In this document: positions 1 to 25,975 of the stretch, piece by piece | How the letters are laid out: each line of letters opens with the position of its first letter | Numbering within the stretch: position 1 is the stretch's first letter | Assembly: GCA_964596555.1 (NCBI GenBank) | Contig: CAZQUT010000002.1 | Span: 1-29,822 of the forward strand | DNA: 29,822 nt | Reading direction: 5' to 3' | DNA from: an uncultured Thermotogae bacterium | Lineage (GTDB): Bacteria; Bipolaricaulota; Bipolaricaulia; UBA7950; UBA9294 | Position numbers and translations under genes: made by a program | The notes under the pieces: model-generated | Seen by the model: only the letters and a program-made list of their open reading frames with translations | Databases searched by the model: none | What the model was told of the DNA's origin: nothing

Positions 1-164
1 AGATCGGTCAATGCTAGTCGCTCTTTGGCTACACCATCAGAATACAGAAGAGGAAGCAGAGTCTCCACGCCGGGAAGGCCGTAGGGGAGATCGAGGAATG
101 ATCCTTTCCACGTCTTCTGCTCGACGGTAAACGGGCAGTGATCGGTCGCTACGAGATCGAGCGT
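1..164. repeat. Exact 164-bp direct repeat, copy 1 (identical to 24891-25054)
   Basis: Base-by-base comparison: 1-164 equals 24891-25054. The first mismatches are at 165, 168, 171 and 188. Confidence 0.95.
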
Positions 165-1073
165 CCCTTCGCGCAGGGCTTTCCACAACGCATCCTGATC
201 TCTTTCGGTGCGTAGCGGCGGCATCACTGAAAACAGGTGCCCTTCCGGTTTTTTGTATACATCCTCGGTCAAGAGGAGATACTGCGGGCAGGTCTCCCCA
301 CTCACGCGTACCCCATGTGTGTGTGCACGATGGATAATCTCTAACCCTTGTCTGGAACTCACGTGCACGATGTGCAATCTTGCTCTGGTGTCTTCGGTAA
401 GGGTGACGGCCTCCGCGACGGCCAGAGCTTCGCAAATCGGAGGACGGGTTCTCGAATAGTGGGCCATCGATCCTTTCTGAGCCGGAGTAAGCTGCCGCAA
501 GAAAGACTCGATTATCGAATCATCTTCCGCGTGCACCATCGCCACGCCGCCAAACTCGGAAATCTTGCGGAACGCACGATAGAGGACAGCGGAGTCCGAG
601 CGTTGCCCAAGCGATCCATACGCCATGTAGAACTTGAATGTTTTCACCCCGGCTTCTTGTGCTCGCTCGAATTCTTCTTCATGCCCAGGCTCCCAGCCGA
701 TCACCTCCGCGTGCAGGGCAAAATCCACCACCGACGGTGCGGCCTCTCGCTTACGAGCTTCTATCTCTTCGGGAATTGAGGTCTTCGAGTCTCCAACAGT
801 AAAATCGATTATCGTCGTTACCCCACCGCACGCTGCAGCGATCGTCCCGCTGAGAAAGTCATCGCTCGAACTGATTCCGTAGTTCTCAGCAGCCATGTGC
901 GTATGAGCGTCGATAACACCTGGGAATACAAGCTTTCCAGATGCGTCAATTTCTTTCCTGCCACTAAGATTAACGCCCATAGTAGCGATCTTTCCCCCAC
1001 TGACAGCGACATCAGCTTTGACGACCTCGTAGGGAGTAACAATGGTCCCGCCGCGGATCACAACGTCGTTCAT
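1..1073 (-). CDS. hydA: Dihydropyrimidinase / D-hydantoinase (cyclic amidohydrolase), 3'-truncated by the window edge; paralog 2
   Basis: Absent from the ORF track because no stop falls inside the window. Hand translation from the ATG at 1073 (ATGA overlap with the upstream stop) gives MNDVVIRGGTIVTPYEVVKADVAV...PGVIDAHTH...AAACGGVTTIIDF...GVKTFKFYMAY...MVHAED...LHIVHVSS...GETCPQYL...ATDHCPF. The metal-binding HxH, carbamylated Lys (FKFY), His and Asp motifs are all present. Confidence 0.92.
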   Translation of the reverse strand, partial: MNDVVIRGGTIVTPYEVVKADVAVSGGKIATMGVNLSGRKEIDASGKLVFPGVIDAHTHMAAENYGISSSDDFLSGTIAAACGGVTTIIDFTVGDSKTSIPEEIEARKREAAPSVVDFALHAEVIGWEPGHEEEFERAQEAGVKTFKFYMAYGSLGQRSDSAVLYRAFRKISEFGGVAMVHAEDDSIIESFLRQLTPAQKGSMAHYSRTRPPICEALAVAEAVTLTEDTRARLHIVHVSSRQGLEIIHRAHTHGVRVSGETCPQYLLLTEDVYKKPEGHLFSVMPPLRTERDQDALWKALREGTLDLVATDHCPFTVEQKTWKGSFLDLPYGLPGVETLLPLLYSDGVAKERLALTD

Positions 1074-2179
1074 ATGTCCACCCTCTCTACCACAAGCTGC
1101 AGAGCTTCGTGCGGGCAAGCGGAGGCGCACAGCCCACACAACCGGCAGGCCGACGAATCAACTTGCCGGGGACTTCTCCGTGCCTGGTACGGACAGATCC
1201 GTACGCACACCCCGCAATCTACGCAGCGCTCTTCATTTAGCCCAAATGACGCTCTCTCTGCATCGGTTGTTGTGGGTAGGCCGGAGTCGCTCCGCTCATA
1301 CCCCCGCAATGAGGGAAGCGCCGCCCCGATCACGTCGTTCAGGCTACAATAGCCAAGTTCCTCCAATCGAGCAGAGAGCTTTTCCGCAAGATCGGAGAAG
1401 ATCGTAACTCCGCGCAGGATAGCTAAGCTGCAGATCCCAACGGCGTGTGCACCGGCCATCATCATCTCGACGATCTCATCGACGTTCCAAATCCCGCCGG
1501 TGCCGACAATGGGGGCTCCCGTAGCAAGGGCAATCTCGGATACGATCCGCAGGGCGATAGGTAGGATCGCCTCTCCGGTCAGCCATCCGTATCCACTTCT
1601 AAGAACTGGAGCGCACTTCTCCACATCGATCCGCAACGCCGGCCCGATCGAATCGATCGCCGTGATCGCCTCTGCCCCGTTTGCCAGGCACGCACGTGCG
1701 ACATCGACCACATCGGGCCAGTTAGCGCTCACCTTGGCGAAGACCGGTATATCGACCTGCTGGACCGCTTCCCTAACCATAGGCAACAGAGCCTTGCCGT
1801 CGTAGGAGACGACCTCAAGTGCATCAGCGCCAGCACGCTCGATGCGATGGGCGAGCACAGCGACGTCCTGCAAAGCGAGGCCCAGACTGGCAATGACGAC
1901 CGCTCCACCCTCCTCAGCAAGCGGTATCTCCCTCTCAATCCATTGCTCGCAAGGTAGATCAGACCACTTTTCACCATTGATGAGACCGTTTTCCACCTTG
2001 GCAATGTGGGGGACAGGATTAACAGCAGGCACTCGACTAATTGTCTTAGTCACCACTGCCCCGGCTCCGGCACGATGGGCACGGAGGATCGCGCTGCCGT
2101 CGTAGGAGAGCGGACCGGATGCAAGAATAAACGGATTCTTGAGTTTAACTCCACCGATAGTTGTCTTGAGCTCTGCCAT
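1070..2179 (-). CDS. PreA / class 1 dihydroorotate dehydrogenase-like FMN TIM-barrel protein with a C-terminal 2x[4Fe-4S] ferredoxin domain; atypical active site
   Basis: N-terminal LKNPFILASGPLS, GAVVTKT, VFAKVSAN and IVGTGGI FMN-barrel motifs. C-terminal CVDCGVCVRICP and CRLCGLCASACP. The usual LNxSCPN/H loop is replaced by LEVVSYDG. Confidence 0.8.
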   Translation of the reverse strand: MAELKTTIGGVKLKNPFILASGPLSYDGSAILRAHRAGAGAVVTKTISRVPAVNPVPHIAKVENGLINGEKWSDLPCEQWIEREIPLAEEGGAVVIASLGLALQDVAVLAHRIERAGADALEVVSYDGKALLPMVREAVQQVDIPVFAKVSANWPDVVDVARACLANGAEAITAIDSIGPALRIDVEKCAPVLRSGYGWLTGEAILPIALRIVSEIALATGAPIVGTGGIWNVDEIVEMMMAGAHAVGICSLAILRGVTIFSDLAEKLSARLEELGYCSLNDVIGAALPSLRGYERSDSGLPTTTDAERASFGLNEERCVDCGVCVRICPYQARRSPRQVDSSACRLCGLCASACPHEALQLVVERVDI

Positions 2180-2182
2180 CTC

Positions 2183-3502
2183 TCACCCCACTCCCCACAG
2201 CCGCTGAGCCTGTGTTCTTGCTGCATGTCTCGCCTCTTCGATGTCCACGGTCAACAGCTCACCGTCGTTCATGAGAAGCCTTCCGTTCACGATCGACAGA
2301 CGAACGTCGCTGCCGCTACGGTAGAGAACTACCTGATCGAGAGCATTCTCTTGAGTAAGAGGTGTATCAAGAGACAAATCAATTCCGATCAAGTCAGCGA
2401 GCATTCCCGGGGCGATCTTCCCTGTATTTTGGATGCCAATCGCCTCCGCTCCCCAGGATGTACCCATAGCAAAGACCGTCTTTGCTGGCATCACTTGTGG
2501 GTCGCACAACGCGCCCTTATGAATCAGGAACGCCGCGCGCATCACCTCGAATGGATCGTTGATGTAGCCATCCGTACCTAGCCCCGGTCGCATCCCGCGT
2601 GAGATCATATCCGGAACCAGTGCGATCCCTCCTCCCACTTCGCAGTTGCTTAAGGGCATGTGCGCAAGCCGCACTCCACGCGCGGCAAGGATATCGATCT
2701 CTTCTAAGTCAAGCGCCACCCCTTGAGCCGCAAGGACTGAACCATCCCAGAACCCGACCTGAGCGTACCACTGCACCGGCCGAAGACCATGTTTCTGGAG
2801 GCATACCTCCGGTTCATACGGACTTTCTGAGAGATGGAGATGAATTCCGCATCCAAGTTCATCGGCGATCTCCTTGGCATGCCTGACGAACCCCTCCGAG
2901 CAGGTGAAGCTCGTGTGGACACACATCATTCCACTAACGAGTGGATCGGCCACGTGCCTTTCGGCAAATCGCGCGTTCTCCGTGATCGCCTTTTCTCCCA
3001 GTTCTCTTCCCAGCCTCTCCGACGCCTCGATTGACAGGACTGCTCTAAGGCCTGCATCTATTAGAACCTTCGCTTCCACTTCGAGCGCCCCAGGGAGGCA
3101 GTTTGGCGCCTCCAAAATGTCGCAGAAACTGGTGAACCCGGACTGAATCATCCTCCCACACGCTAGTCGAGACACGGCAGAGATCATCTCGTGGTCAAGT
3201 CGATTCTCTACCCGCGGCCACCAGAAGTCGCTTAGAAATTCATAGAAGCCCACTGATGACGCATCGACCGGAATACCGTGAGCAAGGAGGCCGTAGGAGT
3301 GCATGTGTGCATTCACAAACCCGGGCATGAGGAGAAGATCGGTCGCATCGATCACCTCAGCATCAAGATGTGCGGCACGCAGCTCATCGTTCGGACCGAC
3401 TGCAGTGATCATTGCCCCATCGATCGCAGCCCCCCAATCCTCTTTCAATGGTTCTTCAGCAGAGGAAAGGAGCGCTCCGCCGAGAACGAGACGTTCAGCC
3501 AT
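2183..3502 (-). CDS. Metal-dependent amidohydrolase/deaminase (Atz/Trz/SsnA-like)
   Basis: PGFVNAHMH, HLSES and LGTDG motifs. The FLSDFWWPRVENRLD segment resembles SsnA-type proteins. Substrate unknown. Confidence 0.82.
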   Translation of the reverse strand: MAERLVLGGALLSSAEEPLKEDWGAAIDGAMITAVGPNDELRAAHLDAEVIDATDLLLMPGFVNAHMHSYGLLAHGIPVDASSVGFYEFLSDFWWPRVENRLDHEMISAVSRLACGRMIQSGFTSFCDILEAPNCLPGALEVEAKVLIDAGLRAVLSIEASERLGRELGEKAITENARFAERHVADPLVSGMMCVHTSFTCSEGFVRHAKEIADELGCGIHLHLSESPYEPEVCLQKHGLRPVQWYAQVGFWDGSVLAAQGVALDLEEIDILAARGVRLAHMPLSNCEVGGGIALVPDMISRGMRPGLGTDGYINDPFEVMRAAFLIHKGALCDPQVMPAKTVFAMGTSWGAEAIGIQNTGKIAPGMLADLIGIDLSLDTPLTQENALDQVVLYRSGSDVRLSIVNGRLLMNDGELLTVDIEEARHAARTQAQRLWGVG

Positions 3503-9500: not shown

Positions 9501-10652
9501 TCACTCATCCCGGAGTGCCTTGGCGAGAAGTTCGAGAATGTCAAGGACTTCTACTTTCGATCCTGCCTTGCTCTTGGCATCCAGAAGTCCACTCTGACAC
9601 GCCGGGCATGCACTCACCACTGTGTCCGCTCCCGTTGCTTCCGCCTCTGTAAACCGATCGAGCTCGCAATCCACGGACATTTCCTCGTAGTCATAGCGAA
9701 CAAACGCGCCGTTTCCACAGCAGAAAGAGTTATCACGGTTACGCGGCATCTCCACCAGCCTGAGCCCAGGGATCATTTCGATCAGTTCTCGCGGTGGCTC
9801 GTAAATTCCCATGTGTCTGCCAAGATTACAGGGATCATGATAGGTAACGACACGAGACAGCTTCTTCAGCTGAACAGGGTGCTTTGCGAGCTCCCCAGTA
9901 ATAAACTCAGTCAAGTGCATCGTCTTAAACGGGAGCGGCTCGCCGAGAAGCCGCGGCATCTCTTCCCTAAACGTACGCAAGCACCCGGGGCAGGCAAAGA
10001 CAACGGTCTCTATTCCAAGGCAGGAAATGGCTTCCAGATTCATCGCCGCCGTTTTTCTTGCATGATCCATCTTCCCTGCCGCGATATAGGGATGACCGCA
10101 ACATTGTTCGTTACCAAGAAGTGTGAAATCCACTCCCAGCTTTTCGAGAACCTGATAAGAACTACGGGCGATACCGCGTCTCAGGTAAGCAGTGGTGCAA
10201 CCAACAAAGAACAGGACACCTGCTTGCCTATCAATCCTTTCTCTGTTGGGAAGCCAGGCAAGTCTCTTCTCTCCGGGTTTCTTATACGGATTGCCAAACT
10301 CGTCCACCTGAGCAAGTACATCGCTGAGGCCAGAGGGCAACAAATCCCGCTCTGCCAGGTCCTCTTTCATCGCTGCGTAGATCTCAGTGAGCGGAAGATA
10401 CTTGAAGCACTGCTCTTGGCAAGCCTCACACTCGGTACAGGCAAAGATACGTTCTGCAACATCTTCGTCATACTCTATTTCCTTGTCGATCAGGGCACGC
10501 GCGATGGCAAGCTTTCCCCGCGCGCCATACGATTCAAGCCCATACGTTGCATATGGTGGACAGATCTTCTGTCCTTCCCCTTGTTCTTGATCGAAACAGA
10601 ACGCACACCGAAGACAGCTGTAGATCTGATCTCTATACTTCTCAAGCTTCAT
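9501..10652 (-). CDS. Fe-S oxidoreductase with two 4Fe-4S motifs and two CCG domains (HdrD/GlcF/GlpC-like)
   Basis: CLRCAFC, CTECEACQEQC, FFVGC, QCCG, FACPGC, YHDPCNLGR, FCCG, SACPAC. Confidence 0.9.
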   Translation of the reverse strand: MKLEKYRDQIYSCLRCAFCFDQEQGEGQKICPPYATYGLESYGARGKLAIARALIDKEIEYDEDVAERIFACTECEACQEQCFKYLPLTEIYAAMKEDLAERDLLPSGLSDVLAQVDEFGNPYKKPGEKRLAWLPNRERIDRQAGVLFFVGCTTAYLRRGIARSSYQVLEKLGVDFTLLGNEQCCGHPYIAAGKMDHARKTAAMNLEAISCLGIETVVFACPGCLRTFREEMPRLLGEPLPFKTMHLTEFITGELAKHPVQLKKLSRVVTYHDPCNLGRHMGIYEPPRELIEMIPGLRLVEMPRNRDNSFCCGNGAFVRYDYEEMSVDCELDRFTEAEATGADTVVSACPACQSGLLDAKSKAGSKVEVLDILELLAKALRDE

Positions 10653-12069
10653 GTTTCACTCCAGTGGGGAAGAGAAGGTCGGGGTTCAAGATACCGTTCG
10701 GGTCCATCGTGGTCTTGAGCGCCTTAAACAGCTCAAAAGACGTACCGAGCTTTCCCATGATGTACGGAGAAACCCCGGCACCCAAACCGCCCGGGCTCAT
10801 CCGCCCTTCCGTGAACATCAACTCGGCGATATCGCCGCGTAACTTCATCCCGTACTCCCAGGCGTCATTTCGGCGTTCATCATACAGGGTGTCGATCCAC
10901 AGGTAGGCCCCGTTGCGGGAGAAGTATGCATCAAGACCCTTGACTCGAATCCCGTATCGGGTGAAATCCGCATCGCGCTCTTCCCGTAGATTGCGGAACA
11001 GCCGAACCGCCTTCTTCAGCCCCTGAGTGGAGACAAACCCCGCTACCTCGGGGCAGAAGTACGGCCGATCACTGTAGTATGGTCCGGGCGCGGTGTTTCG
11101 CAGCCAGGAGTACATGTGCTCCTCCCAGTAGTGCCTCGTCCCCTCCGCAGAGGAAGGGCGCCCGCCGTGCGATTCGCAGATTGCAGCAGCCTCCTGAAGC
11201 CGCTCGCGTGCCCTAGTAGCACGATCACGAACGATCAGGTGGAGGAACCCGTCACCTTCCACTCCCGCCGGTTTAGGTCCACCGAACATGCCAACAATGA
11301 ACGTCGCTGCCTCGCGCATCTGAATACCATCCGCTGCATCGATTGCATCCTGATAGTCATCAAAAGCATAAAATGCAAACAGCTCCGTCTCCGGAACCGG
11401 CCGAATGCGATATGTTACCTTGGTGATAATGCCAAGGACCCCATACGACCCCATGAATAGCCCAGCAAAATCGGGCCCGTTAGCATTTCGCTCGATCGGC
11501 TCAGAATTCGGATTAGCGGCTGAGCCAGTGTTGATTACGCTTCCATCCGGAAGAACGACCTCAAGAGACAGGACATGATCGGCGGTCATCCCATACTCTG
11601 TAGCTCCATGTGGAATAGCATTGACCGCGACTGTCCCACCGATGGTGCATGAGAAGAGTCCTCCCCCACCGGGAACAGCAAGCTCCCGTCCCAGTTTATG
11701 CAAATGGTTGTCGATTCCATGCCAGATCGCCCCTGCCTGTGCAGTGACGTATCCCGCCTGCAGATCAACGCACTCTATCCGGTTCATCCTGGTTGTTTCG
11801 ATAATGATCACGCCGTCTTTAACGCCGCTTCCCAGGAAGGTTGTTCCCCGTCCCCGCGTGTAAATCGCTTTCTTGACTTTGTTCGCGAGACGGACAATCG
11901 CGGCCACCTCTTCTGTCGATCCAGGACGGACTACCGCGTCCGGAATTCCTGCTTTGTCTGGACCACAATCCCGTGAATAGCAGATCCTATCTACCATATG
12001 ATCGCTGACATACCGCTCACCAACGATCGCTACAAGTCCTTCCTTGATATTATTATCCATAACTTTCAC
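10642..12069 (-). CDS. FAD-binding oxidoreductase (VAO/PCMH fold; GlcD/alkyl-DHAP-synthase-like)
   Basis: PDAVVRP, RGRGTT, AQAG, CTIGG, LEVVLPDG, FMGSYGVLGIIT and C-terminal DPNGILNPD. Confidence 0.87.
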   Translation of the reverse strand: MKVMDNNIKEGLVAIVGERYVSDHMVDRICYSRDCGPDKAGIPDAVVRPGSTEEVAAIVRLANKVKKAIYTRGRGTTFLGSGVKDGVIIIETTRMNRIECVDLQAGYVTAQAGAIWHGIDNHLHKLGRELAVPGGGGLFSCTIGGTVAVNAIPHGATEYGMTADHVLSLEVVLPDGSVINTGSAANPNSEPIERNANGPDFAGLFMGSYGVLGIITKVTYRIRPVPETELFAFYAFDDYQDAIDAADGIQMREAATFIVGMFGGPKPAGVEGDGFLHLIVRDRATRARERLQEAAAICESHGGRPSSAEGTRHYWEEHMYSWLRNTAPGPYYSDRPYFCPEVAGFVSTQGLKKAVRLFRNLREERDADFTRYGIRVKGLDAYFSRNGAYLWIDTLYDERRNDAWEYGMKLRGDIAELMFTEGRMSPGGLGAGVSPYIMGKLGTSFELFKALKTTMDPNGILNPDLLFPTGVKHEA

Positions 12070-13405
12070 CTATCTTCTTAACCTCCCTAATAATAGCTTT
12101 CTCATCGATTGTCGTGATCGTCCGATCGCGCATGACGATGCGCCCATTAATGATTACCGTTTCAACATCGCTCCCCTTGGCACAATAGACAAGCGCAGGG
12201 ATGATATCGTCGCTCAAGTTGAACATATGCGGAGCAGAGGGATCCATGATGACAAGGTCAGCAAGCCGTCCCTCGTCAATGGTCCCCGCGTCGACTCGGC
12301 AGGCCGCAGCTCCAACTGCGGTCGCACTGGCAAAGATATCGCGCGCATCCAGGGCAGTTGGATCCATAGCTGCCACCTTCTGCAGGAGGACCCCGGTACG
12401 CATCTCCTCAAATGGGTCCAGGAGGTCATTTGATGCCGCGCCATCGGTTCCCATAGCGACATTGACACCAACCTGCCGCATCTTCGTGATTGGAGCGATC
12501 CCACTGCCAAGCTTCATGTTGCTCTTCGGGTTGTAGACCACTGTCACCGAGCGATTCTTGGCAAGCTCTATCTCCTTATCGGTAAGGTGAACGCCATGGA
12601 CGGCAAGAATCGGGCGAGAGAGAAAACCGATCGACTCCAGGTAAGAGAGAGGAGTCTTCCCCACCGTTTCCAGGGAGTGTTGCACCTCCCACTCCGTCTC
12701 CGACACATGTGTCTGAATCCCGAGGTCATATCGCTCAGCGGTCTCCATGATCCAAGTGAGCAAGCCCTCACTACAGGTAAACGGAGCGGAGGGCCCTAGG
12801 AAGACCTGCACGAGCGGATCTTCCGATGGCATCTGATGCCAGTCCTCAATAAGCTTCAGGGTCTCTTCCCGCAACCGCTCTGGCGTAGTGATCAAATCGT
12901 CGGGGACCCACTGATCGACCATACTCATCGCAGCGATCCCGCGGATGCCCATCTCGGCCCACGCTTGCGGAACTCCGGGAAGATTCATGTCCATGTCGAT
13001 GAACGTCGTGATCCCGCTTCGAATCATCTCTATCGTCCCGAGCATCGACCAGAGATAACCAATCTCACCTACGCTCCCTTCTCGCATTCGCCGCAGCACG
13101 TTACGCACAAACGGGAAGGTCACTTCCTCGCACCACGATACGAGCGGGACGTCATCCCTCCTACCCTTAAGCATCGATTGATAGAGGTGAGTGTGTGCGT
13201 TGACAAACCCGGGCGTGACGATCCGGCCTCTTCCATCGATAACGATGGTCTCCAGTGTTATCTCCTGTGATGTGACCTGACCGATCCGCACGATCCGATT
13301 CCCTTCGATCAGCACGTCCACATCGTGCTCCACACGGTGCGCGTCCCGAACGAGATGGGAGATATTCTCGATGAGGATCATCCTTTCTCTCATGTCATCC
13401 ACCAT
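12053..13405 (-). CDS. Metal-dependent amidohydrolase/deaminase (MtaD-like, 5'-deoxyadenosine/MTA/SAH deaminase family)
   Basis: PGFVNAHTH, QTHVSET, AVHGVH, NPKSNMKLGSG, GTDGAASN. The start may instead be 13393. Confidence 0.87.
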   Translation of the reverse strand: MVDDMRERMILIENISHLVRDAHRVEHDVDVLIEGNRIVRIGQVTSQEITLETIVIDGRGRIVTPGFVNAHTHLYQSMLKGRRDDVPLVSWCEEVTFPFVRNVLRRMREGSVGEIGYLWSMLGTIEMIRSGITTFIDMDMNLPGVPQAWAEMGIRGIAAMSMVDQWVPDDLITTPERLREETLKLIEDWHQMPSEDPLVQVFLGPSAPFTCSEGLLTWIMETAERYDLGIQTHVSETEWEVQHSLETVGKTPLSYLESIGFLSRPILAVHGVHLTDKEIELAKNRSVTVVYNPKSNMKLGSGIAPITKMRQVGVNVAMGTDGAASNDLLDPFEEMRTGVLLQKVAAMDPTALDARDIFASATAVGAAACRVDAGTIDEGRLADLVIMDPSAPHMFNLSDDIIPALVYCAKGSDVETVIINGRIVMRDRTITTIDEKAIIREVKKIGESYG

Positions 13406-14384
13406 TGCAATCCCTTCCTTCTAGAAGATCGACCAAGCACTTCACGTCCACCTTCCCAGCACGGCTTACGCGCCCGCTGGAGAGGTGATTGATCGTGATC
13501 TGCGCCGGTTTGTTGATGTCATTCAGATTAGGGATCTTCTCGAAGACCCCACCCGCTTCCCGCAACACATCGCAGAACAGGCGCCCGTAAATCGAAGCGG
13601 ATTCAAATGAGAGCCGGTGCGCAAGCTCATCCAAGCCGTCATCCGGAAAGCCGTCAACAGTAAGGAGCGCAGCGCCAGCGTAGTGAATGAAGTCATCGGG
13701 GTAGGGACGATTCTCTGTGGGAGATGCGCCTCCGTTCACCGGGCACACAAGCGCTCGCCCGATCATGTGTTTGACGATATGGGGATCGACGTCCAGGCTC
13801 TCTTTCATAGTGAAGATGACGCTCTCATTCACTCGTCCCGCGATCTGCGTCGCGCCAACCACACTTGCGATCGGTGCGGCGATCAGGGTCAACATCTGCG
13901 GCAGAACGCCGCTCTTCTCAGCAAGATGGAGCGCAACCGCATCATCGGGGAGACAATCGGTTTCAATGACGGCAATCCCGATCGCATCCTTCGCGGGCAA
14001 GTCTCCATCCAAACACAGACGGATAGGACCGGAAACGCGAATCCCCGGCTTATCCGCGCTCAATGGATAGGAGGTTTGCAGTCCGTATGTTGAGAGGAGA
14101 GGATGAAACGACTCGACAGTAATCTGTGGGAGGATGAATCCCCCAAGATCGGTGAGGTCAAGCGAGACGTTGGCCAGCCCTCCATGGCAGATCTCAATCA
14201 ACAGGCGCCCTGCCTCGAATGACCCAACTACGCCAAATCCAGCGTCGATCAACGTCGCTTTGCAGGGGAGTGTCTGTACAGAGAGGCCGTATTCCCATGC
14301 GTGGTCAATCAGAATGCGCGTGAGCTCGCCCGATCGGCGGGCAATATGCGCTTGCATTCTTGAATCGAGGCTTGGACTATTCAT
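13395..14384 (-). CDS. mch: Methenyl-tetrahydromethanopterin cyclohydrolase-like protein (divergent)
   Basis: Co-linear motifs matching Mch: LIDAG, GSFEAG, EICHGGLANV, SGP.R, ETDCLP, APIASVVGATQIAGRVNE, IYGRLF, SSGRVSRAGKV. Confidence 0.82.
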   Translation of the reverse strand: MNSPSLDSRMQAHIARRSGELTRILIDHAWEYGLSVQTLPCKATLIDAGFGVVGSFEAGRLLIEICHGGLANVSLDLTDLGGFILPQITVESFHPLLSTYGLQTSYPLSADKPGIRVSGPIRLCLDGDLPAKDAIGIAVIETDCLPDDAVALHLAEKSGVLPQMLTLIAAPIASVVGATQIAGRVNESVIFTMKESLDVDPHIVKHMIGRALVCPVNGGASPTENRPYPDDFIHYAGAALLTVDGFPDDGLDELAHRLSFESASIYGRLFCDVLREAGGVFEKIPNLNDINKPAQITINHLSSGRVSRAGKVDVKCLVDLLEGRDCNGG

Positions 14385-24613: not shown

Positions 24614-25975
24614 TCAGGCTGCTACAAATTCTCCCCAACCGGCATTTCCCTGAAACTCACCATCTGTGTAGACGACCCTGCCGCGAGAGATCGTCGTGTC
24701 GACCGCTCCGTGGACCTCCATCCCTTCATAGGGCGAGAAGTCGGTATTCATGTGCAGATCCTTAGCATGGATGGTCCACCCCACACTCGGGTCAAAGATA
24801 ACGATATCAGCGTCCGACCCAATTCCAAGAGTGCCCTTACGTGGGTAGAGACCATTCACTCGCGCCGGTCCCTCGCTGAGCAGGCGAGGAAGATCGGTCA
24901 ATGCTAGTCGCTCTTTGGCTACACCATCAGAATACAGAAGAGGAAGCAGAGTCTCCACGCCGGGAAGGCCGTAGGGGAGATCGAGGAATGATCCTTTCCA
25001 CGTCTTCTGCTCGACGGTAAACGGGCAGTGATCGGTCGCTACGAGATCGAGCGTTCCCTCACGCAGGGCTTTCCACAGCGCCCGTTGATCTGCCTCTGCA
25101 CGCAGCGCCGGGCTCGCCGAGTAGAGGTGCGCATCCTTGCGTTCGTACACGGCCTTTGTTAGCAACAGGTACTGGGGGCACGTCTCAGCAGTAAGACGCA
25201 CGCCGCGCGACTTGGCCCGTTTGACCGCCGCCTGGCCAAGATCAGAGCTGACATGAACAATATGGACCCTCGCCCCGGTGACATCCGCGTAGTAGACGAC
25301 CTGCTCGATCGCCGCCCCCTCGCACTCCGGCGGTCGGGTTCGCGCAAGGCTCAGCATCTTCCCTCGTTCCTTGTTCGTCAATTGATCTACAAGTGAGCTG
25401 ATCAGATCATCATCTTCACAGTGAACCAACGCTGTGGCACCAACCTTAGCGATGGCACGAAAAGCGTGATAGAGGACTCCGCTATCCGACCTGCGACCGG
25501 AGCTTCCGTAGGCGGTGTAAAACTTGAACGTCTTCACGCCAAGTGAAACTGCATCGCGAAATTCCGCCTCCTTCCCGGGCTTCCAGCCTACGACCTCACC
25601 GTGCAGGGCGTAATCGATCACGGCATCCTCAGCTACCTGTAGCCGCTTCTCGATATCCTCCGGGATCGTCGTCCCAGCGCTTCCTACTGTGAAATCGACG
25701 ATCGTCGTCACTCCGCCGCAGGCAGCAGCCCGCGTACCGGTAAAGAAGTCATCGCTCGACCGCGTCCCTGCTACGGGTAACGCCATGTGTGTGTGAGCGT
25801 CGATCACTCCGGGGAGTACCAGTTTCCCGGAAGCATCGATCTCTCTCCTTCCCGAGAGATCGAACCCCACAGCAACGATCTTCTCGCCAACGACGCCAAG
25901 ATCGCTCTCCAGCGTCCCGTTGGAAGTAACGAGTGTTCCGTTCTTGATCACCAGATCGTACGTCTTCATGCTCAT
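24614..25975 (-). CDS. hydA: Dihydropyrimidinase / D-hydantoinase; paralog 1
   Basis: PGVIDAHTH, GGVTTIVDF, FKFY, VHCED, HIVHVSS, AETCPQYL, ATDHCPF, GLPGVET, GSDADIVIFDP. SD GGAGG supports a start at 25975 or 25969. Confidence 0.93.
   Translation of the reverse strand: MSMKTYDLVIKNGTLVTSNGTLESDLGVVGEKIVAVGFDLSGRREIDASGKLVLPGVIDAHTHMALPVAGTRSSDDFFTGTRAAACGGVTTIVDFTVGSAGTTIPEDIEKRLQVAEDAVIDYALHGEVVGWKPGKEAEFRDAVSLGVKTFKFYTAYGSSGRRSDSGVLYHAFRAIAKVGATALVHCEDDDLISSLVDQLTNKERGKMLSLARTRPPECEGAAIEQVVYYADVTGARVHIVHVSSDLGQAAVKRAKSRGVRLTAETCPQYLLLTKAVYERKDAHLYSASPALRAEADQRALWKALREGTLDLVATDHCPFTVEQKTWKGSFLDLPYGLPGVETLLPLLYSDGVAKERLALTDLPRLLSEGPARVNGLYPRKGTLGIGSDADIVIFDPSVGWTIHAKDLHMNTDFSPYEGMEVHGAVDTTISRGRVVYTDGEFQGNAGWGEFVAA
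24891..25054. repeat. Exact 164-bp direct repeat, copy 2 (identical to 1-164)
   Basis: Base-by-base comparison with the window start. Confidence 0.95.

Follow-up and report, generated by a model that had tools for sequence, protein, structure and literature searches.

A putative UacX-type ferredoxin-dependent reductase with a deleted catalytic loop, encoded beside an SsnA-like amidohydrolase in an uncultured Thermotogae bacterium

The reductive uric acid pathway was established by Li et al. (Life Metab 2025, PMC12507026; preprint 10.1101/2025.05.19.654654) and Liu et al. (bioRxiv 10.1101/2025.04.24.650524). XdhD yields 2,8-dioxopurine, which is dearomatised by YgfK; both rings are opened by SsnA and HyuA, after which YgeY, YgeW/UacY and YgeX complete the breakdown (PMC12507026; 10.1101/2025.04.24.650524). 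YgfK is a 2,8-dioxopurine reductase (bioRxiv 10.1101/2025.04.24.650524), and its turnover was seen only when coupled to SsnA (PMC12507026). C. difficile lacks YgfK and has instead 'UacX', a proposed YgfK replacement beside SsnA and HyuA; UacX (UniProt Q181U4) is a PF01180 PydA homologue with a site for flavin mononucleotide (FMN) but no flavin adenine dinucleotide (FAD) domain, is presumably ferredoxin-dependent, and is marked operationally as 'PF01180 near SsnA' (PMC12507026). A stand-alone barrel of the dihydropyrimidine dehydrogenase (DPD) type driven by ferredoxin, PydAc, is known from Clostridium chromiireducens (PMC7332683). Here we describe P0001, a PF01180 flavoprotein encoded in a 29,822-nucleotide stretch of contig CAZQUT010000002.1 (the window) from the metagenome-assembled genome (MAG) of an uncultured Thermotogae bacterium, 1.27 Mb in size and 74.6% complete, and compare its locus with these systems.

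In P0001 the DPD scaffold is retained, as are both lysines of the FMN site and the iron-sulfur (Fe-S) relay. What is missing is the general-acid loop, together with two of three Asn positions that bind the pyrimidine. We infer, with a probability of about 0.6, that P0001 is a flavoprotein of the UacX type, which draws on ferredoxin for the reductive dearomatisation of a bicyclic N-heterocycle resembling an oxopurine, coupled to an adjacent SsnA-like amidohydrolase (SsnA') and a hydantoinase. The original prediction of a ferredoxin-linked reductase for a different, bulkier heterocycle is supported in part, and would fit all the findings below as well as the published UacX proposal. The gene and its parts are as follows.

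1070-2179, minus strand: gene of P0001, putative UacX-type reductase, 369 amino acids (open reading frame (ORF) listing, Pfam, AlphaFold2, Foldseek)
1364-2170, minus strand: DHO_dh (PF01180) FMN TIM-barrel, residues 4-272 (Pfam, E 6e-29)
1793-1819, minus strand: truncated active-site loop LEVVSYDGK, residues L121-K129
1649-1660, minus strand: AIDS motif (A174-S177), where the canonical sequence is A-I-N-T
1112-1225, minus strand: C-terminal 2x[4Fe-4S] ferredoxin-like domain with two CxxCxxCxxxCP motifs, C319-C329 and C345-C355

The ORF is real, as originally called, and lies on the minus strand. P0001 has the domain order of PreA/PydA, a DHO_dh FMN barrel followed by 2x[4Fe-4S], with Fer4 families matched by Pfam at residues 314-361. 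Its one Fe-S domain, at the C terminus, holds eight cysteines in two intact CxxCxxCxxxCP motifs, the first starting at C319 (CVDCGVCVRICP, window 1190-1225) and the second at C345 (CRLCGLCASACP, window 1112-1147); this domain would relay electrons to the FMN. The FMN lysines K45 and K149 are retained. N68 and E70 are the equivalents of N609 and E611 of pig DPD and align with the 'N-x-E' of PreA in a profile-profile alignment. The AlphaFold2 model (predicted local distance difference test (pLDDT) 95, predicted TM-score (pTM) 0.91) matched pig DPD domains IV-V best in Foldseek (TMq 0.82-0.85), followed by dihydroorotate dehydrogenase B (DHODB, 0.70).

With PreA and pig DPD domains IV-V (PDB 1H7W, 1GTH), P0001 thus shares the FMN lysines, the N609/E611 equivalents and the C-terminal 2x[4Fe-4S] domain; it differs in the deletion of the N668-x-S670-C671 loop (16 residues), in the change of N736-T737 to D-S, and in having neither PreT nor the N-terminal half. 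With class 1B PyrD (PDB 1EP1, 5UE9) it shares the TIM-barrel FMN fold at TMq 0.70 and about 25% identity, whereas PyrD has no Fe-S domain, needs PyrK and carries the catalytic Cys loop. None of the corresponding family models was reached. The best NCBIfam match of P0001 is a PyrD model, yet it falls under the cut-off: NF005574 gave 177.8 bits against a cut-off of 269, TIGR01037 gave 169.8 against 270, and the PreA model NF006183 gave 162.9 against 335.

The loss of the catalytic loop is seen in alignments and in the structure model. We compared the profile of 32 diverse clade members (alignment A4) with that of 16 canonical, loop-bearing PreA/PyrD-like relatives, E. coli PreA first (alignment A3). 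At 100% probability, this comparison placed a 16-residue gap in the P0001 clade exactly over the canonical 'N-F-S-C-P-Q...' loop, with V124, the last residue before the gap, opposite the canonical loop Asn, and D176-S177 opposite the canonical N-T. In phmmer alignments with DHODB and pig DPD, the gap in P0001 stands opposite N-I-S-C-P-N or N-L-S-(C)-P-H. In the AlphaFold2 model, strand 120-124 is followed by only S-Y-D, a three-residue turn, and then by helix 128-141. The deleted loop at LEVVSYDGK and the change of AINT to AIDS, both read from the letters at the outset, therefore hold.

Aligned with PreA, PyrD-like proteins and pig DPD, P0001 shows no equivalent of the Cys loop, and the catalytic Cys of the N-x-S-C-P loop (pig DPD C671) has no counterpart. 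Within the pyrimidine-binding Asn set, the N609 equivalent (N68) is the only one kept, N668 is deleted, and N736-T737 are replaced by D176-S177. Strand and loop equivalence with DPD would place S125, Y126 and D176 in the active site.

The remodelled site is shared by the relatives of P0001. S-Y and D-S are both present in 118 of the 121 closest homologues (43-93% identity), so the loop deletion is neither an artefact nor the mark of a pseudogene. The invariant positions of alignment A4 are K45, N68, E70, W80, E122, S125, Y126, K149, D176 and all eight cluster cysteines. Immediately ahead of S-Y stands Val in 91 sequences and Cys in 36; a Cys is thus not needed at this position. In a FastTree phylogeny, the smallest clade that unites the window protein with a gut Lachnospiraceae member has 88 leaves (support 0.75), every representative of which carries x-S-Y; nine more S-Y representatives sit just outside this node. 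Loss of the loop marks out a large clade and is no local peculiarity. The active-site motifs of clade members are essentially identical whether their genes are linked to XDH/YgeY/YgeX, to aldehyde:ferredoxin oxidoreductases (AORs) or to Mch-like genes.

Distant DHO_dh-Fer4 lineages (P0129, P0130, P0157-P0161, P0140, P0144 and others) have other short loops, among them E-L-S-T-H-Y and E-x-P-A-Y-D, and likewise no catalytic Cys. Judged by their sequences, the many uncharacterised 'loop-less' DPD-like flavoproteins appear to be a large radiation.

The genes that flank P0001 in the window are the following.

2183-3502, minus strand: SsnA' (SsnA-like amidohydrolase), proposed ring-opening partner, 3 nt upstream of the reductase gene
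3-1073, minus strand: D-hydantoinase/dihydropyrimidinase-like gene (HyuA-like), its ATG overlapping the reductase stop (ATGA), cut by the contig end
3495-7255, minus strand: two overlapping genes of AOR-family tungstoenzymes, directly upstream of SsnA', conserved in relatives

P0001 therefore fits the operational marker of UacX: 3 nt separate the end of SsnA' from the start of the reductase gene, whose stop codon overlaps the hydantoinase start. The two hydantoinase paralogues of the window share a 300-nt direct repeat (1-300 against 24891-25190, 85% identity overall), which may reflect gene conversion or an assembly boundary, one copy being at the contig end.

Compared by published description, P0001 resembles UacX in being a PF01180 protein that has an FMN site and Fe-S clusters but lacks an FAD/NAD(P)H domain, and in lying beside an SsnA-family gene (here SsnA', of a sister clade and under the model cut-off) and a HyuA-like gene. 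It differs in three respects. The UacX cluster holds XdhD, YgeY, YgeX and YgeW or UacY, whereas the window operon has AORs and not these; UacX is said to resemble PydAc, with two Fdx domains, whereas P0001 has one; and UacX is proposed to replace YgfK in C. difficile, whereas the MAG of P0001 keeps YgfK. Like P0001, PydAc is a DPD-type FMN barrel without an FAD domain, fed by Fe-S clusters from ferredoxin or viologen. However, PydAc has two Fdx domains (16 Cys) flanking its FMN domain, reduces uracil and belongs to a Pyd cluster, whereas P0001 has one Fdx domain and no catalytic Cys loop. The likeness to YgfK (DOPOR, NAD(P)H:2,8-dioxopurine oxidoreductase of E. coli and C. sporogenes) is one of context: both reductases are paired with an SsnA-type amidohydrolase, and XDH, HyuA, YgeY, YgeW and YgeX surround both modules. 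The architecture of YgfK is unrelated, at about 1030 residues with a PreT-like NAD(P)H module.

The window contains no PreT/GltD-type gene, in agreement with the original prediction that no PreT partner was in view. A query with E. coli PreT matched this MAG only on contigs C112, C139, C187 and C155, and a GlcD-like FAD protein at 10642-12069 in the window is of another type. AOR1 is most like the P. furiosus aldehyde:ferredoxin oxidoreductase (468 bits), and the block AOR-AOR-SsnA'-reductase-hydantoinase is kept in three loci read among the four family carriers (G014, G015, G018) and on a metagenomic contig. The AORs are thus a plausible source of reduced ferredoxin for P0001; the early suggestion to this effect gains from the conserved block and the resemblance of AOR1, while the electron flow itself is presumed. 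The operon further encodes Mch-like (13395-14384) and Ftr-like proteins, a deaminase-type amidohydrolase, an ABC importer, a ribokinase, a glycohydrolase and a DeoC-type aldolase. Because the ribokinase and the aldolase are encoded there, aldehydes from a sugar moiety could yield the reduced ferredoxin. Elsewhere in the MAG, XDH and two OTC-like genes lie on contig C102, and XDH with FAD_binding_5 on contig C38.

A scan of species-representative genomes yielded 80 named loci of the reductase, in which partners were counted by tblastn within 10 kb on each side. The hosts are Peptococcaceae, Moorella, Lachnospiraceae, Oscillospiraceae, Christensenellaceae, Anaerolineaceae, Spirochaetes, Thermotogae, Atribacterota and Halanaerobiales. 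An SsnA-like amidohydrolase, 44-52% identical to that of the window, is present in 65 of the 80 loci. The census also counted an XDH-family molybdoenzyme (55/80), an FAD_binding_5 subunit (48/80), an M20 (YgeY-like) peptidase (43/80), a HyuA-like hydantoinase (31/80), an OTC (YgeW-like) carbamoyltransferase (26/80), a YgeX-like lyase (9/80), a YqeA-like carbamate kinase (3/80), an AOR (8/80) and an Mch-like gene (8/80). Across the clade the reductase is thus housed in clusters of the purine-degradation type. Full-length YgfK lies inside none of the 80 reductase loci. Paradesulfitobacterium and Desulfitibacter provide Pfam-annotated example loci. C. difficile is absent from the 80 loci and from the names of 120 homologues seeded with a Proteocatella member, and searching related genomes of the same family as Proteocatella yielded no additional carriers.

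In 23 of the 80 loci, the barrel is without Fer4 and is fused to, or abuts, a PreT/GltD-like NAD(P)H module, giving a DPD-like architecture in reversed order (among them L010, L013, L015, L016, L035, L037, L049, L057, L058 and L060). Since these relatives join the same barrel to a PreT-like module, the loop-less barrel is the catalytic, electron-accepting part, and ferredoxin-type and pyridine-nucleotide-type versions of one catalytic barrel both exist. The nearest outgroups of the window subclade, L083 and L087, carry YgeY-like and OTC genes, and L087 also YqeA and an AOR.

AOR genes about 50% identical to AOR2 adjoin the pair of SsnA' and reductase genes in Atribacterota, Spirochaetes, Thermotogae and Bacillota (L011, L037, L072, L073, L074, L081, L084, L087, L108-L110), with XDH in some of these loci and not in others. 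L087 combines an AOR with YqeA-YgeY-OTC-SsnA'-reductase-HyuA-M20 and has no XDH within 10 kb. In Christensenellaceae and Oscillospiraceae, an Mch-like cyclohydrolase gene stands directly 3' of the reductase gene, in many cases together with a gene for a TRZ-type amidohydrolase and another Mch-like copy (Mch-associated loci L039, L040, L043, L046, L047, L062, L066 and L012); Mch-like enzymes are therefore a recurrent accessory of the module outside the window lineage. A UbiD-family decarboxylase occurs in reductase clusters of Peptococcaceae/Moorellaceae-type genomes (L005/L008, L010, L037, L065, L076), which hints at a heteroaromatic carboxylate intermediate. Two FMN_red flavoproteins lie near the UbiD-type gene of Paradesulfitobacterium L005, the sole such locus with Pfam calls.

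For the UacX-type reading, the following course of reaction can be proposed. Electrons from reduced ferredoxin, which the two neighbouring AORs might regenerate, would pass through the Fe-S clusters to FMN, and the FMN hydride would then be delivered to a ring held in a pocket enlarged by the loop deletion. The proton could come from Tyr126 or Ser125, from solvent, or through enamine tautomerisation. The unstable reduced ring would be pulled forward by hydrolysis, through SsnA' and afterwards the hydantoinase. The original prediction had the reductase feed the adjacent dihydropyrimidinase-like enzyme; joint action of the two is retained here, and the analogy with YgfK-SsnA suggests that the product goes to SsnA' before it reaches the hydantoinase.

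Chemically, 2,8-dioxopurine can be viewed as a uracil-like ring bearing C4-N9 and C5-N7 substituents. Addition of hydride to C6 would lead to an enamine or amidine able to take up a proton on nitrogen and tautomerise, and a dedicated Cys acid might for this reason be dispensable. Asp in place of Asn would fit an N-H donor in place of the uracil carbonyl. That 2,8-dioxopurine itself is the substrate is a tentative assignment, to which we give rather less than even odds; the remainder falls to an isomeric or related ring. An oxopurine-like ring giving ureido products is favoured, because the active-site motifs are nearly the same across genomic contexts and because the outgroup loci L083 and L087 carry YgeY-like and OTC genes.

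Several points weigh against a UacX-type role. We found no published report of the activity or active site of UacX, nor of any activity for the P0001 clade. SsnA' scores under the cut-off of the SsnA model (TIGR03314; 261 against 455 bits), XDH, YgeY, YgeW and YgeX are not in the window operon, and the window subclade deviates at a few near-site positions, such as L101, which is His in most members. A true YgfK, 43% identical to the E. coli protein over residues 1-610, is encoded in the same MAG on contig C187 (L089/L102). In a scan of 30 relatives, YgfK was present in 16 of the 18 genomes of the family, and clear P0001 orthologues in only four of the 18 (G009, G014, G015, G018), all four with YgfK. 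Among ten other carriers tested, eight have a full YgfK at a separate locus, so the reductase module is parallel to YgfK-SsnA rather than a replacement for it, and may act on a different ring. That YgfK co-occurs, that the operon is accessory and that it carries Mch, Ftr and importer genes likewise make a different ring, such as another oxopurine isomer or a pteridine, possible.

The two modules are also distinct in their partners. On contig C187 an E. coli-type SsnA fragment precedes YgfK, and SsnA precedes YgfK in the loci read from two family relatives (L106, L107). In a Clostridium sp. and in Ca. Formimonas, the second locus is a canonical YgeW/OTC-YgeY-SsnA-YgfK-XDH-HyuA-type cluster, which in the Clostridium sp. 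also holds YqeA and YgeX. In the amidohydrolase tree, YgfK-adjacent SsnA (8 sequences, support 1.0) is sister to the SsnA' of reductase clusters (66 sequences, support 0.78), and the two clades are joined with support 1.0 against TRZ/GuaD-type enzymes. Reductase and amidohydrolase thus make up two modules that run in parallel, rather than a single pathway in which one reductase stands in for the other, and YgfK and the P0001 clade are probably not redundant. More speculatively, and with odds that we put clearly below even, the loop-less reductase and SsnA' could form a second, unrecognised ring-opening module that works in parallel to YgfK-SsnA on a different N-heterocycle (an oxopurine isomer or pteridine-type ring); in this lineage it would be connected to tungsten AORs rather than to molybdenum XDH, and the AORs would either supply low-potential electrons or prepare the ring.

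In the class to which the organism belongs, the P0001 query matched class-1 PyrD-like proteins in other families, and not in most genomes of its own family with a completeness of 90% or more. A class-1 dihydroorotate dehydrogenase (DHODH) may be absent from the lineage, as judged from matches to the P0001 query only, no search with a PyrD query having been made.

The rival explanation that deserves most attention keeps the enzyme class and mechanism and changes the substrate to a non-purine, such as a pteridine/lumazine-type or other ring derived from an imported riboside or cofactor and opened by reductase, SsnA' and hydantoinase. It would account for an accessory operon that coexists with YgfK-SsnA in the same genomes, for the small near-site differences of the window subclade, and for an operon with Mch-like, Ftr-like, deaminase-type, importer, ribokinase and glycohydrolase genes and no XDH; an Mch-like gene follows the reductase gene in 8 of the 80 loci. 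However, the catalytic motifs are essentially those of members in full XDH/YgeY/YgeW/YgeX/HyuA clusters, the nearest outgroup loci L083 and L087 carry the YqeA, YgeY-like and OTC genes typical of a diureidopropionate route, and no pterin-specific enzyme was identified in this analysis. We consider this alternative unlikely, though not negligible.

Far less probable is an ordinary PreA/PydA dihydropyrimidine dehydrogenase subunit, reducing uracil or thymine with a PreT encoded elsewhere and feeding the dihydropyrimidinase. The PreA fold and domain order, the adjoining dihydropyrimidinase-like gene and the PreT-like ORFs on other contigs agree with it, but the Cys/Ser loop and one Asn are deleted, N-T has become D-S, the PreA model is missed by a wide score (162.9 against 335 bits), and the constant neighbour in the clade is an SsnA-like gene rather than the beta-ureidopropionase pathway. 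We find it hardly credible at all that P0001 is the biosynthetic class-1 DHODH of the organism: although a PyrD model is its best NCBIfam match and no other convincing PyrD was found in this 75%-complete MAG, that match stays at 177.8 bits against 269, the catalytic loop is gone, the gene lies in a catabolic operon, and its occurrence in only four of 18 family relatives means that it is no housekeeping gene. Additional subunits with Fe-S clusters or flavin occur in some bacterial AORs, and the AOR-AOR-SsnA'-reductase block is conserved in the lineage, so that P0001 might instead be a non-catalytic flavin and Fe-S electron-transfer subunit of the two adjacent AORs. Yet 72 of the 80 clade loci have no AOR while most have the SsnA-like gene, and the invariant S-Y, D and N/E, located at the barrel's substrate side, point to a pocket that binds a substrate, making this role very improbable too. 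We rejected the PreA, PyrD and AOR-subunit readings.

What is new here is the signature itself (the 16-residue loop deletion, the invariant S-Y, and D-S for N-T), its breadth across phyla, the dedicated SsnA paralogue, the coexistence with YgfK, the PreT-fused forms and the AOR-linked operon form without XDH. Anaerobic purine breakdown by gut and sediment bacteria was worked out only in 2025, and UacX is still a name without biochemistry. The enzyme type has a wide distribution, and its carriers range from gut Lachnospiraceae, Oscillospiraceae and Christensenellaceae to Atribacterota, Spirochaetota, Thermotogota and Bipolaricaulota-like MAGs. Ring reduction on a DPD fold without the canonical Cys acid, as predicted from these sequences, would be of mechanistic interest. 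The coexistence with YgfK and the separate SsnA paralogue raise the question, relevant to the handling of urate in the gut, of whether two routes of ring reduction operate in parallel in these bacteria, and which substrates each of them uses.

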